This document shows, in pieces, positions 3,734 to 61,897 of a DNA stretch of 64,000 nucleotides. The stretch lies in contig NW_027191455.1 in NCBI RefSeq assembly GCF_011745625.1, forward strand, positions 930,001 through 994,000. Reading direction: 5' to 3'. Origin of the DNA: Cladosporium halotolerans. Lineage: Eukaryota. How positions within the stretch are numbered: the stretch's first letter is position 1; every line of letters starts with the position of its first letter. The notes beneath the pieces were generated by a model. That model was given only the letters and a program-made list of their open reading frames with translations. It ran no database searches and was not told the origin of the DNA. The position numbers and the translations under genes were made by a program.

Positions 3734-5962
3734 ATGGATGCCGCACCCACGCACCACAAGCGACAACGCAAGAACACGACTCTCGCCTGTAATCCATGTC
3801 GAAGTCGCAAAATCGGAGTATGATGGCTTCTCCAAAGCTTGCCGCTCGCTCACTGAGATTTGGTGTAGTGCCATGGCGACCCTCCAACATGCAGCCCCTG
3901 CCGCCAGCGCGATATCGACTGTACATGGGCTCTGAATCTGCATCATGGCGAAAGCAGGCACGAAGCAAAAAAGCGGTCGGCTATGGAGGCAGAAGAATCT
4001 GTTCGTGATGTTGCAGCTGCTTTCAACGCCCTGAATTTTGCCACCGACGATCAAATACTGCGCGTTATCCGGAACGCCTCTGCTTCATCGGATCCAGTAA
4101 GAACCTTCGCCCTAATAGCGCATGAACCGAACAAGAGCGCTTCGCAGGCGGACAACGCCACAGACGATGCCGGCCAGCTCGTTACGATGAGCGCCGAGCA
4201 GGAACTATCACTCTCTTCGCCAGATTCCTATGCAACATTAATTCCCGTGGAAGCATCAACGTTACCCTTACGAGCTCCCTCTAAGCGTTTGCCGCTGAGG
4301 AGCTTTCCATCCAATTCCTCCACACCAGCCGTGCCTCCTGCTGTCGATCAAACACAGCACCTCTGTGATGTCAGGCTTCATGACTTACGAATCAGCGAAT
4401 GGACGCAAGCAGATATTCGCAACGAAGATGCTGCCTTCTTGATCTCGCGATACCTGGAAACTGACCACCCTATACTTGGCTTTTTTGACCCAGAACTTTT
4501 CATGGCCGATCTCATAACTGCTCAGACGAGATTTTGTTCCCACCTGCTGGTGAATGCCCTGCTAGCATACACTTGCGTAAGTGAAATCAAGTCTCAAATC
4601 TTGTAGGGAATATTGCGATGGGACTGACGCACTGCCTGCAGCGAACACATAGTGCCTCTCATGCTCATCTCAGGCCACTTAGCCACCTGATTTTCGAGGA
4701 TACGAGACGACTTTGGCTGGCAGAAATGAGCAAAGACTCGATTTGCACCATCGCAGCATCGCAGGTGTTGGCTTTGTACTGCGTTTGTGACGACGAATCT
4801 CGACTTGTGGATGAATTCAACGAAGGAGGTTTTCGTATGGCGGAACGGATGGGGATCTTCGCGTCGACGCACGTGATCTACGAAACCACAGGAGACGAAA
4901 TCCTGTCTGCGAAGCTGCGACGAGCTGCTGCCCACACAGCCTGGGGGATGTACAATTGGCTCGTACTTCATTCGCAACTCTGCCACAACGATCCTCCTGA
5001 CTCATCACCTTCGCTCCCAATTCCAGGAGTGCTCCCTCGAGACAAAGCCAAAATCTATCTCCCCGATCCGAGTCTCCATCGGCTGCCTCCGTTCATGGCT
5101 CAGACGTTTCCAGAATTATGCAAGCTCCGATACATCACTCATGAGATATTCGCGGCCTACAACCCTCATCTCCGAGACTCAACGCCGATTGCCGATGCCG
5201 TATCCACGTTGTTTGTAGTCCGCAAGTACCACGAACTTCTAGATTGGGCGAGCGATCTGACGGACGTAGCGAAACGAAGCAAGGATACTCCTCACCATGT
5301 CGTGATCCTGCAGTAAGCATCAACCCTGCGTGTACGGAGTAAGACGCTGACAAGTTGCCAGCATTTGGTATCACGCTGCCCTGATGGATCTGTTTCGCCC
5401 TTTCATAGGCCACGAATTCGCTTTGATCTCTACAGAATCGAATAAACAAACGGCAGAAACAATTTACACAGCATCACTGGAGCAACTCAAGGCCATGATT
5501 GTGAGCTACCGCCACCAGCATGCCACGAACACCAACTCGATACTCCGGCACATCGGCTTGTTCTACGTAGGCAAGAGTGTGTTGCAGGAGACATACACCA
5601 AGAGCGACCGCTCTTTCTACTTTCAGCTTTGCATCGACTCGTACACCGACCTGTCTGCATCATACACCATTGCAACCGGCTTCCTGCAAGCCTTGGTCCG
5701 CCAAGCGATGGAGGAAAATGTCATCCAAGAGTCCGAGACCAACGCGATCATGCGTGATCTTCGCAAAGCATCTAGTCAAGATCGGCACGGTCCTGGGTCA
5801 GCTCGTTCTGCGGATTTTTTCCTTGCAATGACAAGTCGCAGAAGCTCGCTCGTCAAATACAGTACCGACAGGCTGAGGGAAACAGCCAGGACTGACGAGC
5901 CCATGGTAATTGATGAGAAGGATCGGATTGCGATGCAGCACATCGACTCACGAAAGAGTTAG
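3734..5962 (+). CDS. Zn(II)2Cys6 transcription factor with fungal-specific TF domain, NirA-like
   Basis: ATG at 3734. Introns 3818-3868, 4577-4641 and 5313-5361 join ACNPCRSRKIG|CHGDPPTCSPCRQRDIDC to YLETDHPILGFFDPELF...FCSHLLVNALL and PHHVVILH|IWYHAALMDLFRPF, all in frame to TAG at 5962. Confidence 0.92.
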
Positions 5963-6377
5963 GGGAAGTCTTTCCGAGATCATCTGGCCCAAATTTCGTC
6001 CTTCTGCCTGAGAAGCCTGAAACCTAGGGGCAAAATTTTGGCGACCTTCACGAACGATGAACAACTGATCGAGCCTGGATAACGTCTGCAATCTCCGTTC
6101 GTTATCTTGGTCGTCGAGCAGTGCTTTCCATATCGGTGATTTCTGGCTTAGCGTTCGAGCGAGTTCTGCACTGTCTGATTCTCTTTACGCACTCGGTCGC
6201 GCACTGGCCTCTATGTTACCTCCTAAACGCTGCTTCGGACCCCGAGCTTCACCACTTGGTCGCTAAGCTCGCTGTCTCTATCTCAAATGGTGTCGACAGA
6301 GCAGATCATTTTATTTCTAATATTTGGGAGCATTCTAATGCAGCCATTTGATGCAGCACGAAGCTGTCTTCCCTCTG

Positions 6378-6440
6378 CTATCCGAGTCGCACTCATCACT
6401 ATCCGAGTCGCACTCATCACTTTCCGAGTGGCACGACTCA
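6378..6440. repeat. 21-bp tandem repeat, two perfect copies plus one degenerate copy
   Basis: CTATCCGAGTCGCACTCATCA x2 followed by CTTTCCGAGTGGCACGACTCA. Confidence 0.9.
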
Positions 6441-6869
6441 AAACACGTTTCAGCATTATTGGGAGCGGAAGCCCGGGCCAACACAGAACGATCTGAAAAA
6501 GATCTGGGCTTGAGTTTACGCTTGATCGCCATTTGCGGTAACGGAACCTGTAGCTGTCGCGCTGATCTATGATTGGATTTGGAGGAGGAGCAAATTGATG
6601 TACGATGAATACATTCCGAGGCTTTGGTGCGCAAACGATCAGTGCCACGCAAGCAACGCGAGGCTTTGTTGAGATCGACTGGGCTTGCACACTGACGGCA
6701 GATGTTCCTTTAATACCCTAACGGTCGAAAGCCGAATCGAATTATCACATTGTTTGTCAATTTACTGCCCGTTCCCCACACCATCAGATCCGTGAAATAT
6801 CATGTGCCTCACTACACGCTGTCAGCAGTGGTGAAAGATCGCGTTCTCGCGTCGACTGCCAATGCTCTT

Positions 6870-8624
6870 TCACTCCGAAGAACCCGCCCTCTGCGAAAGC
6901 GGCGCACAAGAAAACGGCGCCCTCCCTTGACCAGCGTGCAAGATATCGCCCACCGCCGCGTACGTCCCCGCGCACATCATAAACACTCCCGCCGCGATCA
7001 AAAAAGCGTGCCACATGACTTTCAGCCAAAACTTCCGCGTCCGCTGCTCCGAGCTCCAGTGGTCTTTGAACCAGAGGCACGCCAGAGGAGGGAAGCAGAT
7101 GGCGGCGCCGAGCAGGGCGCCCACGAGGCTGACCAGCTCGCTGAAGTTCGGGATGCCGCTGGCGATTAGGAAGGCGGTCAGAGCTACGAGGCCGGAGCTG
7201 GAGTACCAGGTTAGGGTGGTTGTTCTGTGACTGAAGGTGCGCTCGGCTGCTTGTTGAGGGTCGTTCCCAGGACCGAGCTTCTGGATTAGTGCGGTTGCCA
7301 AAGAATAGGTCTGCTTCGTCGGATACTGCAAGTAAATTCGTTAGTCACATGAGTATCTAAGGAGCGGATGGCTTGGTATACGTACGTGGCAAAGAAGGCA
7401 TGCCGTGACGCATAAGCCGACAATAGCGATCCCATAGCACACTTTCTCAATGTCACCTCCAGCAGATCCAAGGGCGGGTGAGCTGACGTGTGAGCCGCAA
7501 TAGATGTAGACGATGATGCCGACCGTTGCATAGACCGTGAAGACGCCAGACAGGCTTGCGAACATCGCACGGTTGTAGTGCTTCGGTTCTCTCATCTGGG
7601 CATGTATGGTGAAGAACGCAGGGACTCCAGAGTACGCGAAGACAATACATGAGACGGCAGAGAGAGTCTCTGTGAAGGTGGGATACTTCACGAGTTTATA
7701 GTCTGACACCCACGGGCCTGCTGAGGGTGCGGTTTCGGGACGGCCTCGAACGATGAGCGCGATGGTGAGTACGGCGACTATTGTCCGGCAGTTAGCATGA
7801 TCGTTCGGACAATGCGATGTTGTGATTGACACTCACGAGAAGTTCCGATGCTGGCCGCTCCTACGATGGAGAGGGGAGCAAGCCTAGCGACGGTTTTGAT
7901 CGAAGCCAAGATCCAAGCTATGCAAGATGCAGTAACAAAATAGTCAAGAGCACATCTGCTGTTGTTGGTAAGCACGCCCAGAGCGATGCTTATTCCCAGC
8001 ACTGCCGAAGCGCCCACGAAGATGAAATCTGAACCGAACACCATCAGCATAACGCACCAAAGATCTGCTTGTTGTAAGACTCACAAAGCCAGTACACGGT
8101 TCCGAAAAGGAGTCGACCCCAACGACCAAAAAGCTTCTGCCCTACGTCGTCAAATGCGCGAACGTCTGGATGGCGGAGTCCGGCTTGTCCGATCTGATAC
8201 CCTAGCCAGAGTGCGATTTTATGGACCAGCAGAAGACATACGACGCCACCTAAAAGTCCCATTTGATTGAAAGCAGATGGAATCGAGAGGACGCCGATGC
8301 CAACTTGGGTCTTGAACATCGTGAAGGCTGCCATTATCCATCCGACCTGTGCGACGTACATTAACGCTGAAGGCTGGCTACAGATGCACTAGATTACTGA
8401 GCAAGGCATCGACTTACATTGCGTGTTGCTTCAGGAGCCTCTGTATTCACTTGTTCGGTATCATCTGTTGTACTTCTACTGATGATACGCGTTGTACTCG
8501 TTGCGACTTTGCCGATACTGCTGTCGCTATTGCTGCGGGCATTTCCATGACCATTGCCAACACGGTCGAATGGACTGATGGCATCACTTGGACTATCAGG
8601 ATATGAAGGATTTCGCTGAGACAT
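6870..8624 (-). CDS. Amino acid/auxin permease family (Aa_trans) neutral amino acid transporter, Mtr-like
   Basis: Spliced ORF pieces read VGWIMAAFTMFKTQVGIGVLSIPSAF, IVFAYSGVPAFFTIHAQMREPKHY, GSHVSSPALGSAG and IASGIPNFSELVSLVGAL, with many hydrophobic helices. Introns include 8347-8417 and 8029-8084. Confidence 0.92.
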
Positions 8625-9023
8625 TGCACTATCCGACTACAGTGGTAGATTGTTAGAAAGCGGCGAGCCGGTTTGGGTCAGGACGCCTGTCTCGCAAGAC
8701 AATAAAAGTGAGAGGCTTTGCACGCCGGCAACTCCTCACCGGTCTGCGCCTGAAGCCAATTGCGGTTCTGCGTGCCATTGCGTAAGCGATATCCATTCCG
8801 CGAAGATTGGGTCTTCGTAGTATTAGCAATATCGAACCTGCTGTAGGTCGCAGTCTGGCGCGCCCGGACCGCGTGGTCAACGTGAGGACAAAGCTTCGGC
8901 AGTGCGCTTGGCACTTCACGTGTTGAATGTCGGTCTCTCGCATTTCCCTTCCATCCCGCACAAGCTTACATTCATCTGTCTATCAACATGCATAGAAATA
9001 TATGCTCCAAACAGACCAGCACA

Positions 9024-9877
9024 CTAAGTACAAATCCTCTCTTTCTCATGGCGACTCGACATCTGATGTAGGCGGCTTTCAAAAGCGCGACCCTTTGCCT
9101 CCATGGTCAAGACGCGTCTCAGAATTGCCCGCTTCTCACGCATCAGAACACGTCTCTCAGCTCTGAACACTGGCCCTGAAGACTCTTGTTTGGCCTCCAA
9201 CGCATCAATGCGGCGGGCCACTGCTTGTAACTCTGGCCTTTTCCTCTCCTTCCTTAGCTCCAGCCACATGAGCGCAGCGATAATTGTACTGATGACGGTA
9301 CCGATGCACGAGATGACATCGAACGCTCGGAAGCCAATTTCTATCTTTCTCTGAGAATCATTACCAGTCCCAGAGGCGACAGAGGCGACAGAGGCGACAC
9401 TGCTTTGTGTTTTGGCATCGTGGATGTCTTGAATTGTTGTTGACGGTGCAGAACTGCTAGGGGCGGCTTCTACCGATCTCGCTGTCCGGCCGTCAGTGTT
9501 CTTCTTACATGCGAACAACGCAAGAATCGCTGACCCTCAATCTCCTGGCTGCGGCGAATGGAGTGTGACTGCTCAACGCGATCCCCGCCCGCACGCATTG
9601 GGCGCTTGGTTGTCGCCGATCCAATATGAGAGGACACGGCGAGCCTCAGCATGCCCGACATGTCTGAAGAAGGTCAGTCAGGAATCTTTGGACGACTAGG
9701 AAGACATAAACAACCACCTGGGTTCGTTCGATGTTCTGGCCAAGTCTTGACCGCATGGTTGTCCGCTCTTTGGTGGTTCGCACGCAATAAGGCCCTCGAA
9801 GACTCGACTGGGTATGCGCACGCAGAAAGCGTCAGAAGAAATGACACTAAACTAGCCAGGATGGCTGTTGCAAGCAT
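9024..9877 (-). CDS. Hypothetical secretory-pathway single-pass membrane protein (signal peptide, S/T-rich stalk, TM helix, basic coiled-coil tail)
   Basis: Three ORF-track fragments join in frame via introns 9664-9717 (GTGGTT..CTGAC..CAG) and 9482-9534 (GTCAGC..CTGAC..CAG). N-terminus MLATAILASLVSFLLTLSACA; TM segment VISCIGTVISTIIAALMWL. Confidence 0.72.
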
Positions 9878-10146
9878 CTTCGGTAATGGTGGCTGCAGAA
9901 GATCCAGGAAGACGACTACAGGTGGCTCATCCCATGGGAATTCTCTTTTTATCTGTTCTCTGAGCCCTCCATCCAATTCAGATAGTTGGCGGACGCTTCG
10001 CACTCACTACCTGTGCGTGGTGACTGCTCATAGCTTCGTCGGCTTGCTTAGGAGCCGGGAGACTTAGCAAAGTCGCCTGGCCATCTAGAGCATTTCTCGC
10101 CATATTGGCGGTAGCGATTTGTGCGCCGGCCAGAAGCCCGACTGTC

Positions 10147-10251
10147 AACCGCCAACCGCCAGCTGTAGCCGCCAAGTACAAACCGCCGACTGTGAACGCC
10201 AGCTATAGATCGCGACAGTCAGCCGCCAACCGCCAACCGCCATCCGCCAAC
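10147..10251. repeat. Cluster of imperfect CCGCCAA heptamer repeats in a divergent intergenic region
   Basis: AACCGCCAACCGCCAG...GCCGCCAAG...AACCGCCGA...GCCGCCAACCGCCAACCGCCATCCGCCAA. Confidence 0.75.
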
Positions 10252-10901
10252 TACCGAAGGCAACCACATCAGAACACGCCCTAAGATCTACGTGATGTTC
10301 GACACTGTCCGCTTACTTACAGTGCCTGTCAATAGGTACGAGCTGCAGTTGAAGGATTTTCGGGCTTTCTAATTAGACGGCATTCGGTTACCGGCTAAAC
10401 GACGTTCGGGTCCGTGTGAAGCGCGATCGTTATCCAAGTGGCGCTGCGAGCAGAAAGCTCCGCTCATCTCTTTTCTCGGATGATCTGTAATAAGTTGGCG
10501 GTTCCGCCAGAAGAAGCACCTCTATTTGAGTCGACCTGCATGCTCGCCAAACCCCTGCCAACATGAGCCACCGCCATGATTTGGGCCCATGTGCTTATCC
10601 ACGCACGTGAATCAAGCCGATTGGCGATCTGGTGCATAGCCGAGTTCGACGCCTCGCCAGCGCGACTAGCAGATGCAGTACCACCGTCAAGTTGGCGGGC
10701 AGCTGAGCGGCATCGCTGTAAGCCTGAACAGATCCTTCAGCCTCGTCGTGGCCTGGCCTGAGCTTTGACATTATTATATTAAGGCAGGTGCATTCTTCCC
10801 TTGTGATCCAACTACCTTCAGCCCTCAAATCGCATAGCTCACACACCGTGCTCCGGAAAACGATCAAGTGAAGGACCGTGACCACTTTCTCCCGAACCGC
10901 A

Positions 10902-13900
10902 ATGTCTGTTCGACGGTACGCCCGGTCGAATTGGCATTTGGATAGAATCATCGCACATGAAATCAGTATCCCCGTCGAAAATACAAGTGGCGTACTACCA
11001 TCAACGCGACTGGCATTAGAACTTCAAGCTTCTGGTGAGAAACACGGGCTGAATAGAACTTCAGTGGTTCCGTTTGGAATCAAATGCTTACTGAATTCAG
11101 ACCAATTCCTTGACGAAGATGAATCGCTGGCGATAGAGAGCGAAATAAATTCACAAAGCATGTTGATCGAGTACAAGCGCCACGTACAGCCATTACTAGA
11201 CTCCCTATTGCCAGCCTCCGAGACTGCCGCAGTATCGTTGCGTGGCACCGATCGGATCCAATATCTCAAGTCGCTGCAGATCAAGCTCCTGGTGTACGCC
11301 TGCATGAACGGTATATCCTCTATACAGGGGATGATCGAACCAGTCGTCATGTACGACTTCCTTCAACCGCTGCTATATCCTTATCTACAAAAGACTTCGC
11401 TCGCTATACGTGGACCGCATGATTCCACCACTGTCCAGTCACTGATCTCCACAGCTGAAAATCTTTTCTTCTGGGCTATTGAGAAGGGCAAATGTGATAC
11501 TGTCAGAAAAGTATTGTGTCTCCCAGAAGCAGGAACGACGTCAATAAATCGCGTCGCTGGAATGATCAATACTTGACACCAGTCGAACGATCCGCAGGTC
11601 TTGGTCATGTGGATCTGACCGAGCTACTCATCAAAACCTTCAAAGCGGACGTAAACACAAGTGGACACAAGTCAAATGATGGCAGATCTTTCGCTTGCCA
11701 ATGCGGTCAAGGCGGGGCGCTCAGAGCTGCGCTGTTGGATGCCAAAGTCTCTGACCTTGCCAAAAAGGATCTGCTGACGGTGATTGTCAACGCCGGCGGT
11801 ACGACCTGTGCAGAGGATATGAAAAATATGAAAACAGCGATGGAAGTGCCTAGGTACGTGAGATTACTACCTCCGCTACCCCAACTCGCTAGAACGTCAT
11901 GCATCAGCTGGATTAATGCTGGAGTATACCACGAATCACTCTGCCGAGCAGACGAGGCCGGTGTCCTGCGAATCGTCGATACAGCACTTGCCGCAGGGAT
12001 TGATCTAGGGACGACTTTGCCTTGCTCTCTCAGTGAAAGTGATCGGAAGAAATTCAATATCTGGAACCTTGATGCTTCAACCAATTCCACCGCTTCTGAG
12101 ATCCATGAGATAAACGACATGCATCGTTTCGCTGGGGGCTTGCGCGATGTTTCAAATCTTTACCAGGAATGCATCTTCATGACACCACCTTATCCTGAAA
12201 ACATTATCGACATAGCAATAGAACGTGGGCATGCGTCCGCTGTGGTACGATTAAGGCAATCTGGAATAAGCCTGACTGAGAACTCGTCCACAGCAGCCGT
12301 GCGAAGCCGCAGCCTGCCTTTGCTCAACTATGTGCTCAAAGAAGGCGCTGCGGTCAGTTCTCTATCTCGTCATTATCGCTCTACGGCTCTCGCGGAGGCC
12401 ATTAAGCTGCAAATGGTCGAAACGATTGACGTTCTTTTGCACTGCATGCAAGTTGAGAGCCACATTGTATCAGAGCACCATTACTGCGCAGTATTAGCAG
12501 CTGCCACAGAAGCTGAAGATTGGGCCTGGATCCGATATCTTCTGACCTTGGGGGAATGGAAGTCAGCCGCGGTCCTTGGATACGCACTGGTCAGGGCTAC
12601 CAAGTTGAACCGAACGGATATTGCCTTGAAGTTGCTCGAGATGGGTGCGGCGATCGATCCAATCCTGTCGAATCAAGTCCTTGGCTTTTCCAACAGATCG
12701 ATTCGCGATGGTGGCGATGTGACAGCAAATCTACCGTTGTTCTATGCGCTGTCGCACAACAACGCCTATATTGTACGACTTACTCTGGAGCATGGACCGC
12801 GGTGTTACAGCAATACCCATCACTGGTTTGAGCGTTTCGAGTCGATCATGTTTTGCGCAGTTGCCTTCCGCTGTGATATCGACGTGCTGCAAGAACTATT
12901 GGACGCGGGATTTTTTCCAAGCAGTGGTTTGGTAGCTGCTAGTTGGATGGGTAATCTTGTCCTTGTCCGATTCCTCCTGCGATCGAACCTTTTCATACAT
13001 CAAGATGCACTTCAAGAGGCACTGGGCCGCGCCATCGAGAATTCACACATCTTAGTTGCGCGAGAACTGGTAGCATACGGCGGGACTCTGTCTGCCCGTG
13101 AAAGAATTCTAATGGCGAGAGGCCTTCCGTCTTCTTGCACTGATCTTGTCTCCGATCTGGTGCACACTGGTATCAACCCGGTCCCGGATGACGCCACCCT
13201 GGTCGCTACATTCAAGCTATGCATTCGAGGACGCTTTTGCGCAGCTGCTGCACAGATCATCGAGCAAAGCCACGGAAGACCATTGTGCCAGCTTCTACTG
13301 CAGTACGCCGTGGAACAGAATGCACCTTTGGATCTCATCTCGTCACTATTCCACGCCGGTGCAGACCCGGATGGGATCTGGCGTTCGTTTCAACCTTCAC
13401 AAGACCCCGGAACTGCATTTCTACGTGCGATCCATGGCGGTGACTTGGAGATGGTCAAGATTTTCATCGCAAATCGGGCTCGTGTCAACGAGCCCACAAG
13501 ACCAGGGATGACCCGAACGCCACTCCAAAAGGCTGCTGAGCAGGGATCGAAAGCGATCGTCCAGCTCCTACTTTCCCATGGAGCTGACGTGCACGCCAGT
13601 CCCGCCGTCAGGGACGGCGGCACATCCATCCAGCTAGCTGCCCGTGGGGGCTACATCGGCATCGTTGAGCTTCTCGTAGCACACGGCGAGGATATCTGTG
13701 CACCTGGATCACGGGTTGGAGGGTACACTGCGCTTGAAGCTGCCGCTGAGAGCGGCCTATCTGACATGGTGGTCTATTTGACAAGAGATCCCATGAAACA
13801 TCCGACCAGCCAGTACAGGAATGCCATCTCCCTTGCTAAAGTACGAGGCTACAATGCTGTCGCCACTCTTCTTACCGAGACCATGGAGGAAGTGGAGCTG

Positions 13901-52897: not shown

Positions 52898-54005
52898 TCA
52901 ATCCAGCCGCTGCTTCTTGAAGAATCCGTCCAGCTTTTTCTGCTTCTCGTCATGTGCTGATCTTCCGATACCACCACGCTGTCGCTTCAAACCCGCGAGA
53001 TGCTGCTTGCTATCCACCATCTTGATCACAGTCGAGTATCCGGCCAACATCTTCAAGTCGCCTGCGCTTGGTATTGGTCGCTGATTGATCTCCAAGCGCT
53101 TGCTGCCAACTTCGACAGATGCTGCAACAGCTTCTATTGGAGGCGGAATAGGCGTTTCCAGGGTCTGCGTATCGCTGGTGGACCTTGACTTTCCGGCGTC
53201 GCTGGGTGTCGGCTCTGTTAGAGGCCCAGATGCCAAACCATCGGCGCGAATCAAGAGCTGCAGGTAGCCAGTGTTGCTCCATCCTCCAAGGTGTTCGAGG
53301 ACTAGGTCCCCTCTCGCCGTTGTCACTTCGGGTGCAATAGTGAGGCTTCTCCGAGGTAATCGTAAGAGTAAGCGGCGCCAAAGGTGGGATAGCAGCATCC
53401 CGTGAGAGACAACCGCCACAGAGCCCTCAGCAGAAGGCTTATCAATGGTGAGGAGTGGCAGAAGATGGTCTTCCAGAAATTGATCTGCTCGCTTGGCCAT
53501 AGACTCCTTGCTTTCGACGTCGACGAAGCCTGCGTCATCCTTGTGTTTTTCGCGATGCAGTTCACGTCCTGTCTTCTTCGAGTCGGCGGCGCGAGCTTGG
53601 AAAGGCTTGCCTTCGTAGTACCCAAAGTCCTGCATTTGTCAGCACATGAAAGACGAATGCATCTTGTGGGAGCTATAAACCTGTTCGATCAAGGCCGCGA
53701 CCTTCACGATTTCTGGCACTGCATCTGTGAAGGTATCGGTCTGAGCCTTGCGGATCGCATCTGCGGTTTTCGAGGTACGGGTCAGTGGCGAGGCAAAAAT
53801 GTGAGTGAGTCTGACACCGGTCTTTGCCAGATGATCGCCCAATTTGTCTGCTTGCTCGACGCCATGGTTGGTCAGGACGGAGTCTCGGACGCCTGCGTAA
53901 AGCCCGGCAACATTGTCAACCTGTCAAAAGGTCAGTCCTTAGCTGTTACTTAGTCGGGAGAATGAGTGTTACCGTCTCAGCATGGCGGATGAGGAAGAGC
54001 TTCAT
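52898..54005 (-). CDS. Histidine phosphatase / phosphoglycerate mutase-like family protein
   Basis: MKLFLIRHAET|VDN (RH motif), LTNHGVEQA, IFASPLTRT, EQ|DFGYYEG, VVSHG, WSNTG; two introns. Confidence 0.93.
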
Positions 54006-54356
54006 GTGATATCATTTCCTCGAGGAAAAGGTGGTTGGAGATGATGTCTGCGTCGATGGAGGTGGGGAAGTGTCTGTCCAGGATTGCGGGAAAAGCCGAC
54101 GAACCTTCGAAGTGTCAACGAAGTGGCGAAAACACCGAAACGTCTACTTTTGCGCTATCGAATGCTCTATAAGAGGCTGAAACGTAGCAAAGACAGTCGT
54201 GCAGGAAAATTATTGTTGGCCGATTCTAATAGTACATTTACTCGCGGAACGCTCATTAGCCAAGGGTATATGCATGCCATGTCCCACCGTCTTAACCACC
54301 ATCCTATTCCACCACCCAGAGCTCTGCAGCTAGTATGTCCTTTTTGCGACAGGTCA

Positions 54357-56693
54357 TCACTGGAAGTCTGCCTGCACGCTACCGTACTTAACACCGTCGA
54401 CCCTAAGCTCAAAGACCAGGTTGGCACTCTGGATCTTCATGTGCAGCTCGAAATCTGATCACGCGTCGTTAGAAAAATGACGAATAGACTCTAACTTTGC
54501 ACAGCTTACCAAGATTGTCAAACTCAACTCCTTTCGAAGTGGTGAGTCTTGTGAAGAGGCTCTTGGGAACAGCGTTGAGGTCGGTCGTGAGTTTGCTGAT
54601 GCGTAGGTTAGCTAGAGGCCTTCCGCGATTTGAGAGCGTATCATTGGCTTACCAAACATTAATCAGACCCTTGTTGTAAGCATCGGGTGCCTGGTCATCT
54701 TCGCATGCGACGAGCTCGTCCTCCACCACGCGAGACTGCCCTGGACGGAAGTTACGTGTGTAATGGAAGGATATGGGCTCTTCTGAGGAAATCGGTGTGC
54801 CCTAACGGCATTGTCAGCAACCGTCATTGCCATCTGCAGAACGCTGATACAAACCTTTTCAATGTGCCATTGCATCCGATCGGAGACCATCCATCTCTCC
54901 CAAAGAGGACTCCAGTAGCGATCGGATGCAGGATGCTTCTTCTCGTCGAAGACAGTGGCGTAGCTGGTACCGTACCAGAACCTACTCCTCCGCTTCTCGA
55001 CGACACTGCCTTCAATGCCACGTAATGCAGCACCTCGGACGACCGCGGTCCAGGCGTGCAGTGGCTGCAAGATCTCGATCCCGTTGTCTTCCAGTTTTCC
55101 GTTCGCATGCGTAGGTTGTTGTGTATAAGGTGGTGGGGGTGCATCGTTGAAATGGCGTCTGAGCTTCGTGTAGAGGTAGTTCGATTGACCAAATCCTCCC
55201 ACCAGGATAATTCCAGATACGGTTCCGCGCTTTCTCTTGACCGCGTCTACTTGACCTTGCACGAGATCGATGACTTGCTTGATTACAGGATCGAATATTG
55301 CTTTAACCTGGGCGCAATCCATCACCAAAAACCCGCTGTCGATACCAGCGGCTTCGTCGTCTGGTAGGCCAGGCATGGGGATATTGATGTCGCTGCTCTC
55401 GTCTTCGTTGAACGTTCGCTTCACGAACTCCTCAAAGTATCGCAAGCCCATCATCCAAGTCTTCGGTTTCTTCTTCTTCATCTCGTTGAATCTCTTGGCG
55501 CCGAGCCGCTCTTTGACGTGCTCTTCGAATCTGAAGTCCAGAAAGGCGGAGCCACACAGCCCACCCGTTCCAACGGCACTCTCTTCCACGAGGAGAGGAT
55601 AAAGACTGGTGACTTTGTACGCGATGAGATCGACAGTTCCGCCACCCGCATCACAGACAACGACGTTGTTGCCCTCTTGCAAGCCCTTGGGGGGAGTCAT
55701 CTTCAGGGCGTAGACGGCCGCTGCTTCGGGTTCGCTGATGATCTTGAGTTGGTGCTTCTCACCCATTCCGGCGCGTTCTGCTGCTTGGAGGGTAGAGTTC
55801 TTGGCGGCATCGCTCCTACTCAACGATTAGTCAACCGCCCCCGAGCATTCGATCTCTGCAAAAGCGCTCACCACACGGCAGGGACTGTGAGTACGAAGTC
55901 GACTTTGGTTGCTACGACATCGTCCATTAGCACGGTACCGAACAATGACAAGCTCTCAGCACTTACTGCTCATAAAAGCCTCTCCATATCGTCGATTAAG
56001 TGTTTCCATGGTGTCTGCAATCGCGAATTAGTCGGGAAATGGAATCTTGCGTTCAACCATGTGCTAGGACCCACGCTCATAGATCTTCGCGAGAAAGTCG
56101 GAAACAGCATCTTTGACAGTACGGTCCGATTTGCGAAGTATCGTGGCCTGCAACGCACTCAATCAGCGGGCGACTGTGGTAAGGGGTCCGCTGCAAGACC
56201 CACAGTTTCCAAGGGAGAGACGAAGTGCGGAAGCTTCTGATTACGATCCAGGAAGAGCTTTATGCAGCGCAGACGTGGCTCTTCAGGCTTGTGCTGGAAG
56301 CCCCATTTGATGTCGGGCTTGACCTTGGACAAGGGTGTCTGCTCAGGTGTGGCATCACTGGACGCAGTGGGTTTGTTGATGTATGAGAGCTCAGTTGGGA
56401 CCTTGTCACTTGTGATGCCGTTGCCACCAGGCCAACTCTGTAGACAACATCAATTGGAGGTTCTGCGTTGAAAGAGCGAGGCAAGTTACCTTTATGATGT
56501 CAAGATCATCCGGGTTCGCGCTGTATACAGTTGCTACACCTGAGAATGTCGTGCCAAAATCCACGGCCACCACCAGCTTGTCTTCAACTTCTGGCTCGCC
56601 GAGCATGGAAGGCGGTCGGGTCCCAGTACTTCTGATCATTGTTGGTACTCTGCTGTGCCTGGTGGCATTGCGACTTGGCGAGTTCACAGTCAT
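54357..56693 (-). CDS. Atypical Hsp70-family (HSPA12-like, actin-like ATPase) protein, multi-exon
   Basis: Phosphate-1 VVAVDFGTTFSGVA, WPG...KVPTELSY, VLTVPAVW|SDAAK, ISEPEAAAVY, phosphate-2 VCDAGGGTVDL, adenosine IILVGGFGQSNYL. Ends ..YGSVQADFQ* without EEVD. Confidence 0.93.
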
Positions 56694-57599
56694 GGCAGGG
56701 CGTGGTACTGTGAAGCAGCAGAGCGTGTGGACGTGGTCGTGGTGGCGGTCACAGGCGAAGTCGGACAGGCGTGTTAGCTAGCTACTCAGCATTGGGAAAC
56801 GCTTCAGAGACAGACGGACGGCTTTGCAATGGGCGGTTTCGCGCGTACGTAGTGCCGGTGTGTCAGGCGTCAAGCCAGGTCTCAGATTGCGGTGAGCAAC
56901 GCCCTACCTAGTGCTGCTTCGAGCCCCCGATGCGAGAAAGGTCTTCATGGCCTCCTCGGACACGGGAGCTGGCTATCGGACATTGAGGCACTTGATACAC
57001 TATGCTGTCGCCTAAGCCAAAGATGCATCCCAGCCGGATCTGCAGAGATGCCGCATCGCCCCCACATGGATGGAGCATCCAGGGGTCGTGCGTCTTCCTC
57101 AAAGGGCAGCTTCGAGATCCTCGGCGGGACGTGCGCGTCGCGAGGCTGAACTGAACGTTGTTGGCTTTGCTGTCTTGCCAACGTGGGGACTGCCCTAACG
57201 GATTGCTTTGTTCACAAACATATATTCACGTTGCCCGCGTGACAAACACATGGCTTACGATGGCTTGTGGTCAGAATGCCATGTTCAGGTCAATCGGAAT
57301 CTCTTAATATAGCAAACGCGGAACAATAGTCCGTTTGGCTTTTGTGGATCCCGGGTGCGGCTGGCGTCGCATCACCAGAGGCCGAGAGTGGCTGCCATGA
57401 CTGCGTTCGAAACAACATGGAGCGCTTGAACAATGCAACAGAGATCGTGCGGATGTTGGAGAAACACTTTAGGATTCATCGATAAGCAAATCAGTCAAAG
57501 TTATCGTTGACGGGACACTCAAAAGGTAATCAGCATGGACGTCGCGTCGTGGTGGGACAGAGACACCCTCCCGATCCTGATCCCGCAACCATAGTCCGA

Positions 57600-59105
57600 A
57601 TGCAAGCCCGTTTCCTTCCCCAACTCATCATTTCCGAGCACAGTCCTGCGAGCTCACCGGAGCCCAGTCCCATACCTGTGATCTACAATAGTGGTGGGGG
57701 ACCTGCGCCGGTCAAAGAGGGTTATGGGATAAGGAAGGCGAGGAGCATCGACCAGACACTGAACGATTCTGTTCAGCAGACCAGGATACCGAAGAAGAGC
57801 ACGATGACCGGAGCATCAAATGGTAAAGATGTCGGTGGACAACGAGACGACAGCTCTGAGAAAGCAAGGGGCATGACCCACGTGGCTTCACTCATGCAGC
57901 GCCCTCAGAGGGGATCAAATGTCAGTGGCATAAAGGCCGCGTTCGAGCGAACGAATCGCAAAGCTACACCAAGCTCCTCGAAGATCTCACAAAGCCCCCC
58001 GAAGCGAAGAGAGTTGATATCGGAGGAAGAGCTTTCCTGTTTGAAGCAAGAATTGGAGAAAGAGAGAGCACAACGCGTGGAGCTAGAGGGGCAATGCGCA
58101 AATCTGGACAACAAAGCACACTATTTGCAGGAGCAGCTAGCGCAGAAAGACGATTTCTGGCGGGAAGAAGTCGCGAGGAAGATCCAGGAAGCCAGGCAGG
58201 ACAATCGGGGACCTCCACAAGAGCTGCATAGCTACCGCACTCGAGCTCGAATCGGTGAGACGCAGTCGAATGGACTGCAGCGGCAGTTGACGGATCTTAA
58301 GCGAAGTATCTCCAAGTCAACAAGGGTGGAGACGATGGTCACGTCGGACTCGACCTTCAAGCAGGAGATGATCTCGCTCGCGCACGAAATGCAGAACTGG
58401 ACCGTCAACAACTATCGTAGGGCGAAGATCAATGCCTCCGCTCAGGAACTTTCCTCCAAGCTCTGTGGTCTTGTCAACAATCGGCAGCTCGAGCGTCTTG
58501 AGCCATTGTGGGCAGGGTGGAGACCGGAGAACAAGATATCAGTCCTTCAAGCGACCGTTGCTGCGATGGTCATGGACATTTTCGATGACCAGCTTCTGTT
58601 TGGAATGCCCCCACAGGCTGAGTGGGCGGCGTCTCTGCGAAAGACCGCATTTCAATTGTCAAAAGTACTCGAGCCCCAGCAATACAACAAGTGGCGCGCA
58701 ACGACATTTGACACAGTTCGGCAGGCGGGCGCTATGAGCGCAGCCGCAGATTCTGCAGCGAGGACTATGGCAGAGTACATCACGACGACACTCGACGCTT
58801 TGACCGTACAGCCAAACAGTGATGGGAAAATTTCTTCATTGCAACCTATCGTAAGGCGAGCTATTACCCTTGCGCACCTGTTCCGTGTGCAGAGAGCACG
58901 TTTCAACATCGAACTTCCCGTGCCTCTTCAAGCTTTTAATCCTGATATCATGGAAAACATCGCGTTCGACCGCGAGGCTGAAGATGGGAACGCCATTGAC
59001 TGTGCGACATTTCCCGCCGTGCTCAAGCTGGGTGATGAGCATGGTGAAAACGCGCAATGGCAGAATGTTATCCTCAAAGCCAATGTGGTGTGTGGCGAAA
59101 CTTGA
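57600..59105 (+). CDS. Coiled-coil protein with helical bundle and GrpE/MIEAP-like C-terminal beta head (hypothetical)
   Basis: About 500-aa open frame; heptads LKQELEKERAQRVELEGQCANLDNKAHYLQEQL; C-terminus FNPDIME...TFPAVLKLG...VILKANVVC. The fold call is inference. Confidence 0.85.
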   Translation: MQARFLPQLIISEHSPASSPEPSPIPVIYNSGGGPAPVKEGYGIRKARSIDQTLNDSVQQTRIPKKSTMTGASNGKDVGGQRDDSSEKARGMTHVASLMQRPQRGSNVSGIKAAFERTNRKATPSSSKISQSPPKRRELISEEELSCLKQELEKERAQRVELEGQCANLDNKAHYLQEQLAQKDDFWREEVARKIQEARQDNRGPPQELHSYRTRARIGETQSNGLQRQLTDLKRSISKSTRVETMVTSDSTFKQEMISLAHEMQNWTVNNYRRAKINASAQELSSKLCGLVNNRQLERLEPLWAGWRPENKISVLQATVAAMVMDIFDDQLLFGMPPQAEWAASLRKTAFQLSKVLEPQQYNKWRATTFDTVRQAGAMSAAADSAARTMAEYITTTLDALTVQPNSDGKISSLQPIVRRAITLAHLFRVQRARFNIELPVPLQAFNPDIMENIAFDREAEDGNAIDCATFPAVLKLGDEHGENAQWQNVILKANVVCGET

Positions 59106-59150
59106 GCCAGCTTTCTTATCAGCGAATACCGACCTCGCAATGGAACGAAC

Positions 59151-60481
59151 TCACATGGTGTTCTGTCTGTGGGCCGCTCTGACTCTGGCACCGCCAACCC
59201 TCTCCGCCGCCTTGTCTGGAGGGCTTTCTGCCAACCACGCCTCCAGGCCCCCGCTTCGCTCGTCGACAGTTTGAGCTCTGTTGCGGTCGTGCGGGCGACG
59301 ACTCTTCACGACTCGACCACCAATGAGGCGATGCTCCCACTGCAGTTCACGCGTGCAAAGAGCCTCGCGTCTCTCCAAAAGTGTTGCCGGGCTCGGAAGA
59401 AGGCAGGGGGTATGCACAGCGAAGTCTTTGGTTTTGACCATGGCGTTCGCATTCTCGGCATCCACCGACAATTCCGCACGATTCAGTCCTACTCCTTTCA
59501 CGGATCCTTCCAGCTGAGAAGAGGAGCCGGAGAAAACGCGAGGTACTTCGGCGCCAGCCCTTGGCTCTTTCGGACTCGCATTAGGCTCCGACGTGATGTC
59601 GTAGCTGAAGTCAGTCGGCGGTCTGCCGAAAGGGTGGTACCAGAAATCGTCATCTAGGCTCCGGAAGACATCGTCCAAGGTAGGCAGAAACCTTGTTGCG
59701 GTCCGAGGAAAAGCAGGAATCCCATTGCTATCGTAGACGATTGGGGGTAGAAGGATATCCGTATCTTCCGCGATATCGAGATCGGGGGGCGTTTCGCCGT
59801 CACGCCAGCATCCAAACTCAAATGCAGCGTCGAGGGCGTAGACTATCTCGTTGGCTTCCTCGCAGGCATTACGAAGCGAAACGAACGTGAAGCGAATATG
59901 ATCGATTCTGTTGCGCAGCGTCCAGCTGTTGTGCTCCGGCTTGAGGCGGTGCAGTCTATAGAACGGAGCGTGAACTTCGACTTCGTAGTGATTCAAGAAG
60001 TGACGGTAAAGTGTAACGTCGTTCTTGCTCGGATTATGAAGCGTGCTTGGATCTCTTGTTAGCCATCGAAATAGTTAAGAATATTCGCGAATTATGTGGT
60101 TACGCACTGAAGCACATCGCACCAGTCTTTCAGATTTGCGTAACGCTGCCGATCCGGCACAGACAGTTCAGGCAGCTCTTGCGCAGCGCGCTTGGCTTTT
60201 TCCAACTTCCCGTCGATGTGTGTGTTAATCAAATTGAGGATGTTCATGACCCTGTTGGTAAGCCACTCGATCCTCCGCATGAAGAGGCTGCTGAGGCGGC
60301 TGCTGTGAGGAAAGAGAAGTAGAGAGATTTCGTCGATCATTTGGAGGACACGCTGCAGCATGTCATGGCCGTTGGCATCGAGGCATCCGTGTTCGAGGTG
60401 CGCGTCGAGGAAGCGTAGGATGCCGGGGCGTGGGGCAACAGGAGGCATTTGGCCTGTCAGGGGTGGAGTGGGGAGCGACAT
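59151..60481 (-). CDS. Hypothetical protein, two exons
   Basis: ORFs 60092-60481 and 59151-59996 join in frame via a probable GTGCGT..AAG intron (~60055-60107); protein-like composition, no recognised domain. Confidence 0.65.
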
Positions 60482-60871
60482 TCTTTCCGCTGCTCCAGAG
60501 GGAGAAATGAGAATGAGGACTGTGCTGGTGAGAGTGGGGATGTGCGTGAATGAGATTGAAAATGCGAGGTGAAGGCAGTGAGGTCAGGTTGGCTGGGTGC
60601 GGAAGGCACGCCATGAGCAGCACTCGCGGAAGGAGCGACTCACCTAGCTTCACCCGCAGGCATCGCGGCCGCGATCCTGATTTCACTACACTTCGGTTCG
60701 CTACAATGTAGGCTTATAGCAGTAGCACGAATGGGGGCTGGACGTGATGCATCGAATGTCTGTTTACGTGAGTATGGTACATGCCGTAATCTCTAGAGGC
60801 GTCCGCCTGGACAGCGGAAACCTGGCAGTCCTCCCAACCTGCCCCTGTAATGCCGCTTGAACATTCATCAA

Positions 60872-61897
60872 TTAAAGGTTCGTCAGGTAGTCCTCGATCT
60901 CCTGAGGACTCAGCTTGCGGAAGCGCGGGCCCTGTGCGCCTTCTACGCCCTCGTAACCAAGAAGGTCATCCGCCGGAGGCCCGACAATACCTGTACATGC
61001 AATTAGTATTGTTCACGTCAAGTCCGAGGAAGGGGTCTGCGAGAGTTGTGTACTCACCAATTTCGACTGTGTCGCCATTCATCTCGCCCTCAATAGTTTC
61101 CTTCAGCGTCAGGAGCGCAATGTGAACCGCATCCTCCAGCTCGAGGCCCTCAGTGTACCTCTTCTCCAGGAAAGTCTTTGCGCTCGCCGCGCTCTTGCCG
61201 ATGGCTGTAGCTTTCCAAGGAAAGTAGCTGCCGCTAGGATCGACCTGGTAAAGACTAGGCCCACCCTTCATGATTCCGCCCGTCTTCCTTGTTTTCTTCA
61301 GCTTCTCACCGCCAATGCCAACTTCTTCCTCTGCTTCAACCTCTGCCTGCTCGGGCAGAACGCCGTCATCCCAGCCCGCCACGAGCAAGCTAACACCGTA
61401 CGGGCGCACACCACCACTCTGCGTCGCCTCCTGCATCACGCGCGCAACGTCCTGCACCAATATCCGTGTCGGGGGGTACTCATTGTATATGCGCTTGTAG
61501 CCGGTGTGCGAGACCTTGCGCGCCTTGTCGACCAGAACACGGTAGTCGGGGCCCATGCCGGAGTACACCATGCCGATGTTGGGCGTGATCAGGGAGACTT
61601 TCGAGGATGATGAGGCGTCGATGAGCGGTGTCGAGGACTTCTTCTCCGTGGCGAGGACGATGCCGTTGGCGGCTTTGATACCGAGAGAGGTTACACCTTG
61701 GTTGACTGCGTTGAGTGCATACTCTGGGATGAACGTTAGAAGCTATCGAGGATCACTCGAGAGGTTTGAGCCATACCGATCTGCACCAGCTTACCGCTGC
61801 CGACGAGTTAGCATTATCATTCATCAGACATGTCCGGGAAACTCCAAACGTACCTGGGCGAGAAGGTGGTGAGCGAGAATGAGTATCTGTCGGCCAT
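60872..61897 (-). CDS. PRE8: 20S proteasome subunit alpha-2
   Basis: [78 protein letters not shown], ..[17 protein letters not shown]; three introns. Confidence 0.98.

Follow-up and report, generated by a model that had tools for sequence, protein, structure and literature searches.

We describe here a pair of divergently oriented genes of the fungus Cladosporium halotolerans, one coding for an atypical Hsp70 of the HSPA12 type and the other for a protein that may be its dedicated, GrpE-like cofactor. The pair lies within a 64,000-nt stretch of the genome (positions 930,001 to 994,000 of contig NW_027191455.1, assembly GCF_011745625.1; hereafter the window, in whose numbering all coordinates are given). 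The Hsp70 gene (54357-56693, minus strand) stands head-to-head with a single-exon gene for a protein of 501 amino acids (aa), which we refer to as the partner (57600-59105, plus strand), and 906 bp separate the two start codons (56694-57599). An earlier note on this DNA, made from the letters alone, had given the same coordinates, a divergent gap of about 900 bp and the C-terminal sequence of the partner, all of which agreed with our results. It had also proposed that the partner is a GrpE-like protein serving this Hsp70. We consider there to be an even chance that the two genes form a working pair in which the partner binds the nucleotide-binding domain (NBD) of the HSPA12-type ATPase.

An Hsp70 encoded beside a GrpE-type protein is a system of a known kind, encountered here in a branch, and in a putative compartment, without a described case. 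In the eukaryotic cytosol, nucleotide exchange is known to be the task of BAG, HspBP1/Fes1 and Hsp110 proteins, and GrpE, the exchange factor of DnaK and mitochondrial Hsp70, is to our knowledge confined to organelles in eukaryotes. Judging from literature listings and the opening lines of abstracts, we found no paper describing an HSPA12-type Hsp70 with a GrpE-like partner.

The Tail of the Partner Protein Is Probably GrpE-Like

We analyzed the predicted structure of the partner using two AlphaFold2 (AF2) models. In the full-length model, built with 26 sequences, residues 1-138 (57600-58013) were of low confidence and were followed by a long single helix at residues 142-201 (58023-58202; predicted local distance difference test score, pLDDT, 82-94), a helical domain of high confidence and an end that was poorly defined. 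The pLDDT was below 50 over residues 1-49 and 54-138, and the corresponding columns of alignment A1 were gappy and variable; from its low predicted order, this poorly conserved N-terminal region is probably disordered. The long helix is a probable coiled coil, and many members of the family give coiled-coil Pfam noise over the same region. When the last 280 residues were modeled separately with 142 sequences (model m02b13fea3b8e), the prediction was confident (pLDDT 94.8; predicted template modeling score 0.88) and consisted of nine helices followed by six short strands. These form a family-specific helical domain (residues 222-376; 58263-58727), which has near-invariant columns and carries the conserved motifs QL..LK.SIS..TR and QNW.VNN.RR, and a putative GrpE-like head (residues 377-498; 58728-59093). 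The head is made up of a helical hairpin (residues 377-432) and a beta domain (residues 434-498) carrying F-N-P..M-E-N and N-V-I-L-K-A-N-V-V. The domain order that had been read from the sequence, with a disordered N-terminus, a coiled coil, a helical region and a distinct tail, was reproduced by these models as a low-confidence N-terminus, a long helix, a helical domain and a small beta domain.

We next compared the tail model with known structures. In a search made independently of Foldseek, the model was aligned to 48,161 representative chains, and GrpE was among its best structural matches: human GrpEL1 (9bls_B) ranked second, with a Z score of 6.6, a root-mean-square deviation of 4.2 and 105 aligned residues spanning model residues 27-280, while three further GrpE chains ranked 10th (4ani_A, Z 5.8), 11th (3a6m_B, Z 5.7, model residues 185-280) and 12th (1dkg_B, Z 5.6), all being values that the tool's own guidance calls "middling" (Z below 8) and that may reflect a common arrangement alone. 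In a second look restricted to Foldseek's first 1,000 chains, of which 995 were ranked, GrpE entries took ranks 1, 2, 3, 4 and 6. Among the rows listed, only those of GrpE extended to the C-terminus of the model (residues 279-280), the others being helical-bundle matches that ended near residue 210. No structure or Pfam row for BAG, HspBP1/Fes1 or Hsp110 was present among the matches listed.

Profile comparisons pointed in the same direction. Aligned by hhalign against 30 GrpEs, the tail gave P-values of 0.02-0.1. Against an alignment of 66 bacterial GrpEs (drawn from three phyla and a single cyanobacterium, two loci being left out), the hairpin and beta part gave a P-value of 0.0014 with a score of 25.0, the whole domain 0.0037 and the last 96 residues 0.0036. 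A score of 25.0 was reached by none of 150 block shuffles of the GrpE alignment (mean 16.3, maximum 22.3) nor by any of 150 column shuffles (mean 11.3, maximum 19.2), and the reversed profile scored 13.1. In the resulting register the strand after the hairpin falls on the first strand of GrpE, F-N-P..M-E-N falls on F-D-P..H-Q-A, N-V-I-L-K-A-N-V-V falls on V-L-R-P-A-M-V, and the strands pair one to one. A GrpE hidden Markov model (HMM) scored at least 5 bits in 10 of 192 proteins of the partner family (maximum 10.6) versus none of their 192 reversed copies, the hits lying either on the coiled coil or on the tail, in the order known from GrpE.

The single scores all fall short of significance, and the weight of the likeness comes from the fact that GrpE had been named before the search and that its representatives cluster at the top. 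The proposal of a GrpE-like tail was therefore upheld in part: GrpE supplied the best or near-best structure matches, and the F(N/D)P..ME and VILKA.V patterns aligned in the register that had been suggested, but every score stayed under the usual significance line. We conclude that the tail probably has a GrpE-like fold, whereas common descent of the tail and GrpE is, in our view, evenly poised between yes and no. The partner is not a member of the Pfam GrpE family (PF01025). It appears to share with GrpE, GrpEL1 and Mge1 the order of parts (disorder at the start, then one long helix, pairs of helices and a small C-terminal beta domain) and, in register, the F-D/N-P..[H/M]-E motif and last hydrophobic strand, and it shares with them a gene position adjoining an Hsp70 gene. 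It differs in its length (501 aa versus about 200), in its extra helical domain of about 150 residues and in lacking a match to the Pfam family. Moreover, the neighboring Hsp70 is of the HSPA12 type rather than the DnaK type, and the genes lie head-to-head with separate transcripts and form no operon. Bacterial grpE-dnaK(-dnaJ) operons likewise encode an Hsp70 beside its own GrpE-type factor, whereas the fungal pair is eukaryotic and its divergent genes probably share a promoter region. The open reading frames (ORFs) scanned around the pair included no J-domain gene.

The Partner Family

The partner itself belongs to no Pfam family and matched no PDB chain sequence at E ≤ 10. A word-indexed search returned 44 close relatives, and a homolog search seeded with alignment A2 gave the same 45 close relatives and added nothing. 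An exhaustive profile search of a library clustered at 50% identity extended the family to 658 representatives at E ≤ 1e-3, 283 at ≤ 1e-10 and 108 at ≤ 1e-30. Among the rows listed for 86 members that were scanned against Pfam (26, 30 and 30; for the first 26, the table of the first member and the 25 commonest families), no match above the Pfam cut-off fell in the shared part. One of the 86, P0170, gave a sub-threshold match to Pfam GrpE (E 0.013; 15.7 bits versus a gathering score of 25.8). Two distant members, P0110 and P0116, carry an N-terminal 2H phosphoesterase domain of the AKAP7 type (E 1e-18 and 8e-25, respectively), and such fusions are probably the reason why close, unfused relatives bear, in one source, the name "activating signal cointegrator complex subunit 1." The named close relatives of both the partner and the Hsp70 belong to Dothideomycetes, for example Cladosporium, Baudoinia and Zymoseptoria.

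The Hsp70 Is of the HSPA12 Type

The Hsp70 gene was modeled with nine exons on the minus strand (56693-56490, 56437-56204, 56147-56075, 56014-55967, 55911-55872, 55815-54855, 54801-54653, 54595-54510, and 54454-54357), giving 1,893 coding bases and a protein of 630 aa. A script check of the model found all eight introns to have GT..AG boundaries and lengths of 52-60 nt. Spliced contigs from runs X2, X6 and X7, which belong to three studies, together bridged all eight predicted introns. The joints from 54454 to 54510, from 54595 to 54653 and from 54800 to 54854 were present in X2 and X6; that from 55814 to 55871 in X2; those from 55911 to 55967 and from 56437 to 56490 in X2 and X7; that from 56014 to 56075 in X7, with a version shifted by two letters in X2; and that from 56144 to 56203 in X2 and X7, with two foreign letters between. 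Two of the Hsp70 joints are offset by 2-3 letters and have two other letters at the junction, and the contigs, being 95-99% alike, represent close relatives. The model also aligned end to end with annotated homologs, residues 1-630 matching residues 1-637 of P0222 at 71.7% identity, and it was about 75% identical to P0194 of Baudoinia.

The predicted protein contains the motifs DFGTT (residue 45), VPAVW (196), EPEAAA (228), DAGGGTVD (255) and GGFG (406). The phosphate-1, phosphate-2 and adenosine motifs are all present, and the same columns are invariant in alignment A4, which comprises 75 Hsp70 sequences with a mean column identity of 57%. The Pfam HSP70 profile (PF00012) matched exon 6 with an E-value of 1e-6 and full-length homologs with E-values of 1e-12 to 3e-15. 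These matches end near position 379 of the 599 profile positions and thus cover the nucleotide-binding part only. The protein ends in VQADFQ and has no EEVD, and its family-specific C-terminal part holds RRSR at residue 475. From the early end of the PF00012 coverage and the absence of EEVD, the sequence is that of an Hsp70 lacking the canonical substrate-binding lid. Sequence features support its assignment to the HSPA12 type, the relation to animal HSPA12A/B being taken from the source names of homologs, some of which are called "Heat shock 70 kDa protein 12A/12B" or "actin-like ATPase domain-containing"; PF27033 is a precomputed annotation on the homologs. The earlier description of an HSPA12-like Hsp70 with intact ATPase motifs and no EEVD is borne out by the PF00012 match, the motifs and the homolog names.

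The fungal Hsp70 family is well conserved, with 69-100% identity to the L014 query among the 120 matches listed, and by source names its members span several classes of Pezizomycotina. Like vertebrate HSPA12A and HSPA12B, the fungal protein has intact NBD motifs and neither a canonical lid nor EEVD; it differs from them in having a fixed neighbor and very high conservation, the likeness to them being one of homolog names. In a FEBS J 2026 review (PMC13580251), HspA12 is described as lacking the helical lid, as having a presently unknown function, and as being present in tens of copies in bivalves.

As a separate observation, residues 1-35 of the Hsp70 (56693-56590) have a composition like that of mitochondrial presequences, with five arginines and no acidic residue among the first 32, in a stretch that is not conserved among homologs.

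Both Genes Are Transcribed, Probably From a Common Intergenic Region

In addition to the spliced Hsp70 contigs, unspliced contigs covering the whole partner ORF were found in X2 (57435-59200) and X7 (57456-59200), consistent with its single exon. Spliced Hsp70 and partner transcripts were thus both present in X2 and in X7. None of the listed runs is on record as RNA, and we take the RNA origin of the X2, X6 and X7 contigs from the joints that span introns; in a further run, X1, the introns are covered, as would be expected of DNA. Sequencing depth is given per contig and cannot rank the two genes.

On the Hsp70 side the spliced contig of X2 (record 9) runs from 54300 to 57055, while on the partner side the contigs begin at 57435 (X2 record 10) and 57456 (X7 record 20). 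Positions 57088-57415 have no cover in either run, and about 380 bp (57056-57434) lie between the two transcript contigs. Although contig ends are no proof of transcript ends, transcript contigs on both sides of an uncovered gap indicate divergent transcription that starts within no more than about 380 bp, and positions 57056-57434 are likely the shared promoter zone of both genes. Of the co-regulation that had been proposed, what we observed is the presence of both transcripts in the same runs; this is co-presence only and does not extend to regulation itself.

We also detected two conserved non-coding blocks on the 5′ side of the Hsp70 start codon, at 56823-56888 (minus strand) and, shorter, at approximately 57036-57047. 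Their k-mers were common to 7-8 of nine intergenic regions, among which L001 and L002 are near-duplicates, and in alignment A7 the first block was present in seven of eight sequences, being missing from L014. The blocks are kept in relatives with partner proteins of only 55-65% identity, and the Hsp70 transcript contig extends over both of them. We recognized no known motif in either block.

In one contig of run X1, position 57199 is followed by five foreign letters and then by position 58469, so that 1,269 bases are skipped, comprising the promoter side and the initial 870 bases of the partner gene. The contig may come from a relative with a deletion, or it may be a chimera of the assembly.

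Conservation of the Gene Pair

A scan of metagenome contigs with the partner-family alignment gave 21 loci, in which we sought the Hsp70 by tblastn with the window model. A divergent Hsp70 homolog was found upstream of the partner in all 10 loci having at least 2,218 nt of upstream sequence (L001, L002, L003, L007, L008, L009, L010, L014, L019, and L020), while the remaining 11 have at most 1,297 nt upstream and are too short to show it. Since L001/L002, L014/L015 and L019/L020 are near-duplicates, these represent about eight independent cases. In L019/L020, where the partner is only 27% identical, the first exon of the Hsp70 (DKLIVGVDFGTTYSG) is still divergent upstream. For the five most distant partner matches of the word-indexed search (P0039-P0043) there is indirect evidence that the partner and Hsp70 genes occur on the same contigs, as the largest contig of each has the same size as that of an Hsp70 match (7,640, 23,685, 48,146, 1,524,556 (Baudoinia), and 2,697,351 nt).

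The pairing also has a possible counterpart in bacteria. Among 151 cyanobacterial genomes, one (G411, locus L244) strongly matched the fungal Hsp70 profile (4.6e-18), and its Hsp70 aligned with the fungal family by hhalign with a probability of 99.7% and an E-value of 9e-27 over 447 columns, extending past the NBD. Directly 3′ of it lies a gene for a 657-aa coiled-coil protein that matched Pfam GrpE with an E-value of 0.0045, below the cut-off, and to which the fungal tail aligned over residues 372-473 (hhalign P-value 0.0088). The gene row of this locus (5361-12262) comprises a GIY-YIG nuclease, a vWA protein, the HSPA12-type Hsp70, the coiled-coil protein, a radical-SAM/4Fe-4S protein and, last, a protein of 428 aa that has no Pfam family. 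The cyanobacterial and fungal pairs are thus alike in joining an HSPA12-type Hsp70 to a coiled-coil gene weakly like GrpE, whereas the fungal genes are head-to-head and the fungal partner has the extra helical domain. When the L244 coiled-coil protein was searched in 121 genomes of its order, matches were obtained almost only through its last 80 or so residues and lay in unrelated, very large proteins. Searches of Pseudomonadota returned nothing with the fungal Hsp70 profile (301 genomes, E ≤ 1e-20) or with the L244 Hsp70 (401 genomes, E ≤ 1e-25).

Two short extra GrpE-like genes were noticed in another genome, G001 (L147 and L148; 32.5 and 28.1 bits, just above the Pfam cut-off), one overlapping a large ORF at its end, the ORF having a G-protein-like motif, and the other standing alone. 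Neither adjoins an Hsp70 gene, and these weak GrpE paralogs were dropped.

Conserved adjacency may indicate a functional link between two genes. Alternatively, the two may be neighbors by descent only, in a slowly rearranging block, with the partner being a coiled-coil scaffold unrelated to the Hsp70 and the likeness of its tail reflecting a common arrangement of a helix hairpin plus a small sheet. We consider this somewhat unlikely. The observations that weigh against a working pair are as follows. The genes downstream of the partner (59154-60583 and the proteasome alpha subunit) are also kept in most loci, including L014-L017 at 36-46% partner identity; eight of the 10 Hsp70-bearing loci keep them, while L008 and L010 end too soon to tell. 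Synteny by descent could therefore explain most of the conserved adjacency, and the conserved adjacency asked for in the earlier note, though found head-to-head wherever there was room, lies mostly inside a larger syntenic block. With respect to the tail, the top rank among the 48,161 chains was taken by a segment of an unrelated lyase (Z 6.8), all GrpE Z values (5.6-6.6) were below 8, hhalign probabilities against the 66 GrpEs were 9-17%, and the window partner had no Pfam GrpE row at E ≤ 10. The check by AlphaFold and Foldseek that had been suggested produced a confident tail model, but Foldseek gave nothing at E ≤ 1e-3 for either the full-length or the domain model and placed GrpE only at ranks 24 and 29 (E approximately 1) for the latter. 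In addition, about 150 residues of helical domain (222-376) have no canonical GrpE counterpart, the GrpE-like part of the L244 protein falls in two different stretches depending on the comparison (121-248 versus 372-473), and a search of 301 cyanobacterial genomes with A6, the profile of the fungal tail, gave no match at E ≤ 0.01. Finally, no heat-shock elements were present between the two genes; the whole window had 10 matches versus 14.6 expected.

Several results nevertheless speak against mere neighborhood. GrpE was the prior hypothesis, yet it occupied four of the first 12 places among 48,161 chains, and the profile score exceeded those of all 300 shuffles. The divergent Hsp70 is kept in L019/L020, where no match to the window's downstream neighbor was found. 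The cyanobacterium, too, has a weakly GrpE-like coiled-coil gene directly after an HSPA12-type Hsp70.

Possible Function of the Pair

If the two proteins do work together, a mechanism can be proposed on the model of GrpE. The partner would dimerize through its long helix, as GrpE does, and its C-terminal head (hairpin plus small beta domain) would dock on the NBD of the Hsp70, which is the domain contacted by the GrpE head in the 1DKG complex. Docking might open the cleft and speed the release of ADP or, at the least, keep the ATPase fixed in a particular nucleotide state, while the extra helical domain and the disordered N-terminus could tie the pair to a place or client.

Alternatively, the partner may bind the Hsp70 through its GrpE-like head and yet be no exchange factor. 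It would then serve either to bring the lidless Hsp70 to a site or client, as an adaptor or anchor, or to brake it by locking it in one nucleotide state. The helical domain at 222-376 and the long N-terminal region, both without a GrpE counterpart, would suit such a role, as would the strong conservation outside the tail (QL..LK.SIS..TR and QNW.VNN.RR) and the account of HSPA12 proteins, in the review cited above (PMC13580251), as lidless and of unknown function. We consider this unlikely. The part of the partner most like GrpE is the very part that in GrpE contacts the NBD, and our observations fit exchange activity just as they fit such a role.

As a candidate exchange factor or other NBD-binding cofactor, a conserved and transcribed neighbor with a GrpE-like head gives the fungal HSPA12-type ATPase a concrete protein with which to begin. 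If the partner binds, this orphan branch of Hsp70s opens to biochemistry in a group amenable to genetics, and the possible kinship with MIEAP and GIL1/IRKI becomes worth a direct test.

Possible Resemblance to MIEAP/SPATA18 and GIL1/IRKI

We also searched for remote relatives of the partner with a protein language model, whose scores below 0.9 are, by the tool's own measure, leads only. The nearest named clusters were those of MIEAP, at 0.79 for the whole protein and 0.81 and 0.80 for residues 222-501, and of GIL1_IRKI_C, at 0.80 and 0.77, and nine of the 10 best named hits share a family or clan. Neither PF16026 (MIEAP/SPATA18) nor PF24994 (GIL1/IRKI) matched the window partner at E ≤ 10, and neither was among the rows listed for the other 85 members scanned. 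MIEAP/SPATA18 and GIL1/IRKI proteins have a coiled coil followed by a conserved C-terminal domain, and in this the partner is like them; it differs in having no Pfam match. The resemblance to MIEAP and GIL1/IRKI suggested earlier thus gained a language-model lead (0.77-0.81) but no Pfam match.

The partner might be kin to the C-termini of MIEAP/SPATA18 and GIL1/IRKI and, in the manner reported for MIEAP, form condensates or be linked to an organelle, in which case it would not need the Hsp70. MIEAP is reported as condensate-forming in PMC10845071. The nearest clusters and the shared family or clan of the best hits are consistent with this explanation, as is a layout of a disordered region plus a coiled coil, whereas the scores below 0.9 and the missing Pfam matches argue against it, and we consider it very unlikely; even if it were true, it would be compatible with a link to the Hsp70.

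A GrpE-like cofactor and kinship with MIEAP can also be combined. The fungal partner, animal MIEAP/SPATA18 and the plant GIL1/IRKI C-termini might all belong to a single family that spans the eukaryotes and whose head derives from GrpE. Together with relatives in bacteria and amoebae, its members would serve HSPA12-type Hsp70s as an ancient second Hsp70-GrpE system outside mitochondria and plastids. This is a speculative reading to which we assign only a small chance. It would fit the fact that MIEAP-like clusters are commonest in molluscs and that HSPA12 genes are massively expanded in bivalves, as stated in the same review (PMC13580251), though neither proves it. If true, HSPA12 would gain a cofactor, and the action of MIEAP would find its explanation in a chaperone.

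Neighboring Genes

The pair is flanked by a gene of the histidine phosphatase superfamily (52901-53638, minus strand; PF00300, E 3e-6) and a proteasome alpha subunit gene (60969-61742, minus strand; PF00227, E 8e-51), whose order is kept in several related loci. Between the partner and the latter lie two open frames without a Pfam family (59154-60074 and 60095-60583, both on the minus strand) that are kept near the partner in most related loci and are probably two exons of one gene. The sole perfect heat-shock-element-like match of the window (TTCGCGAATATTC, 60079-60091) falls in the 20-base gap between these two frames.

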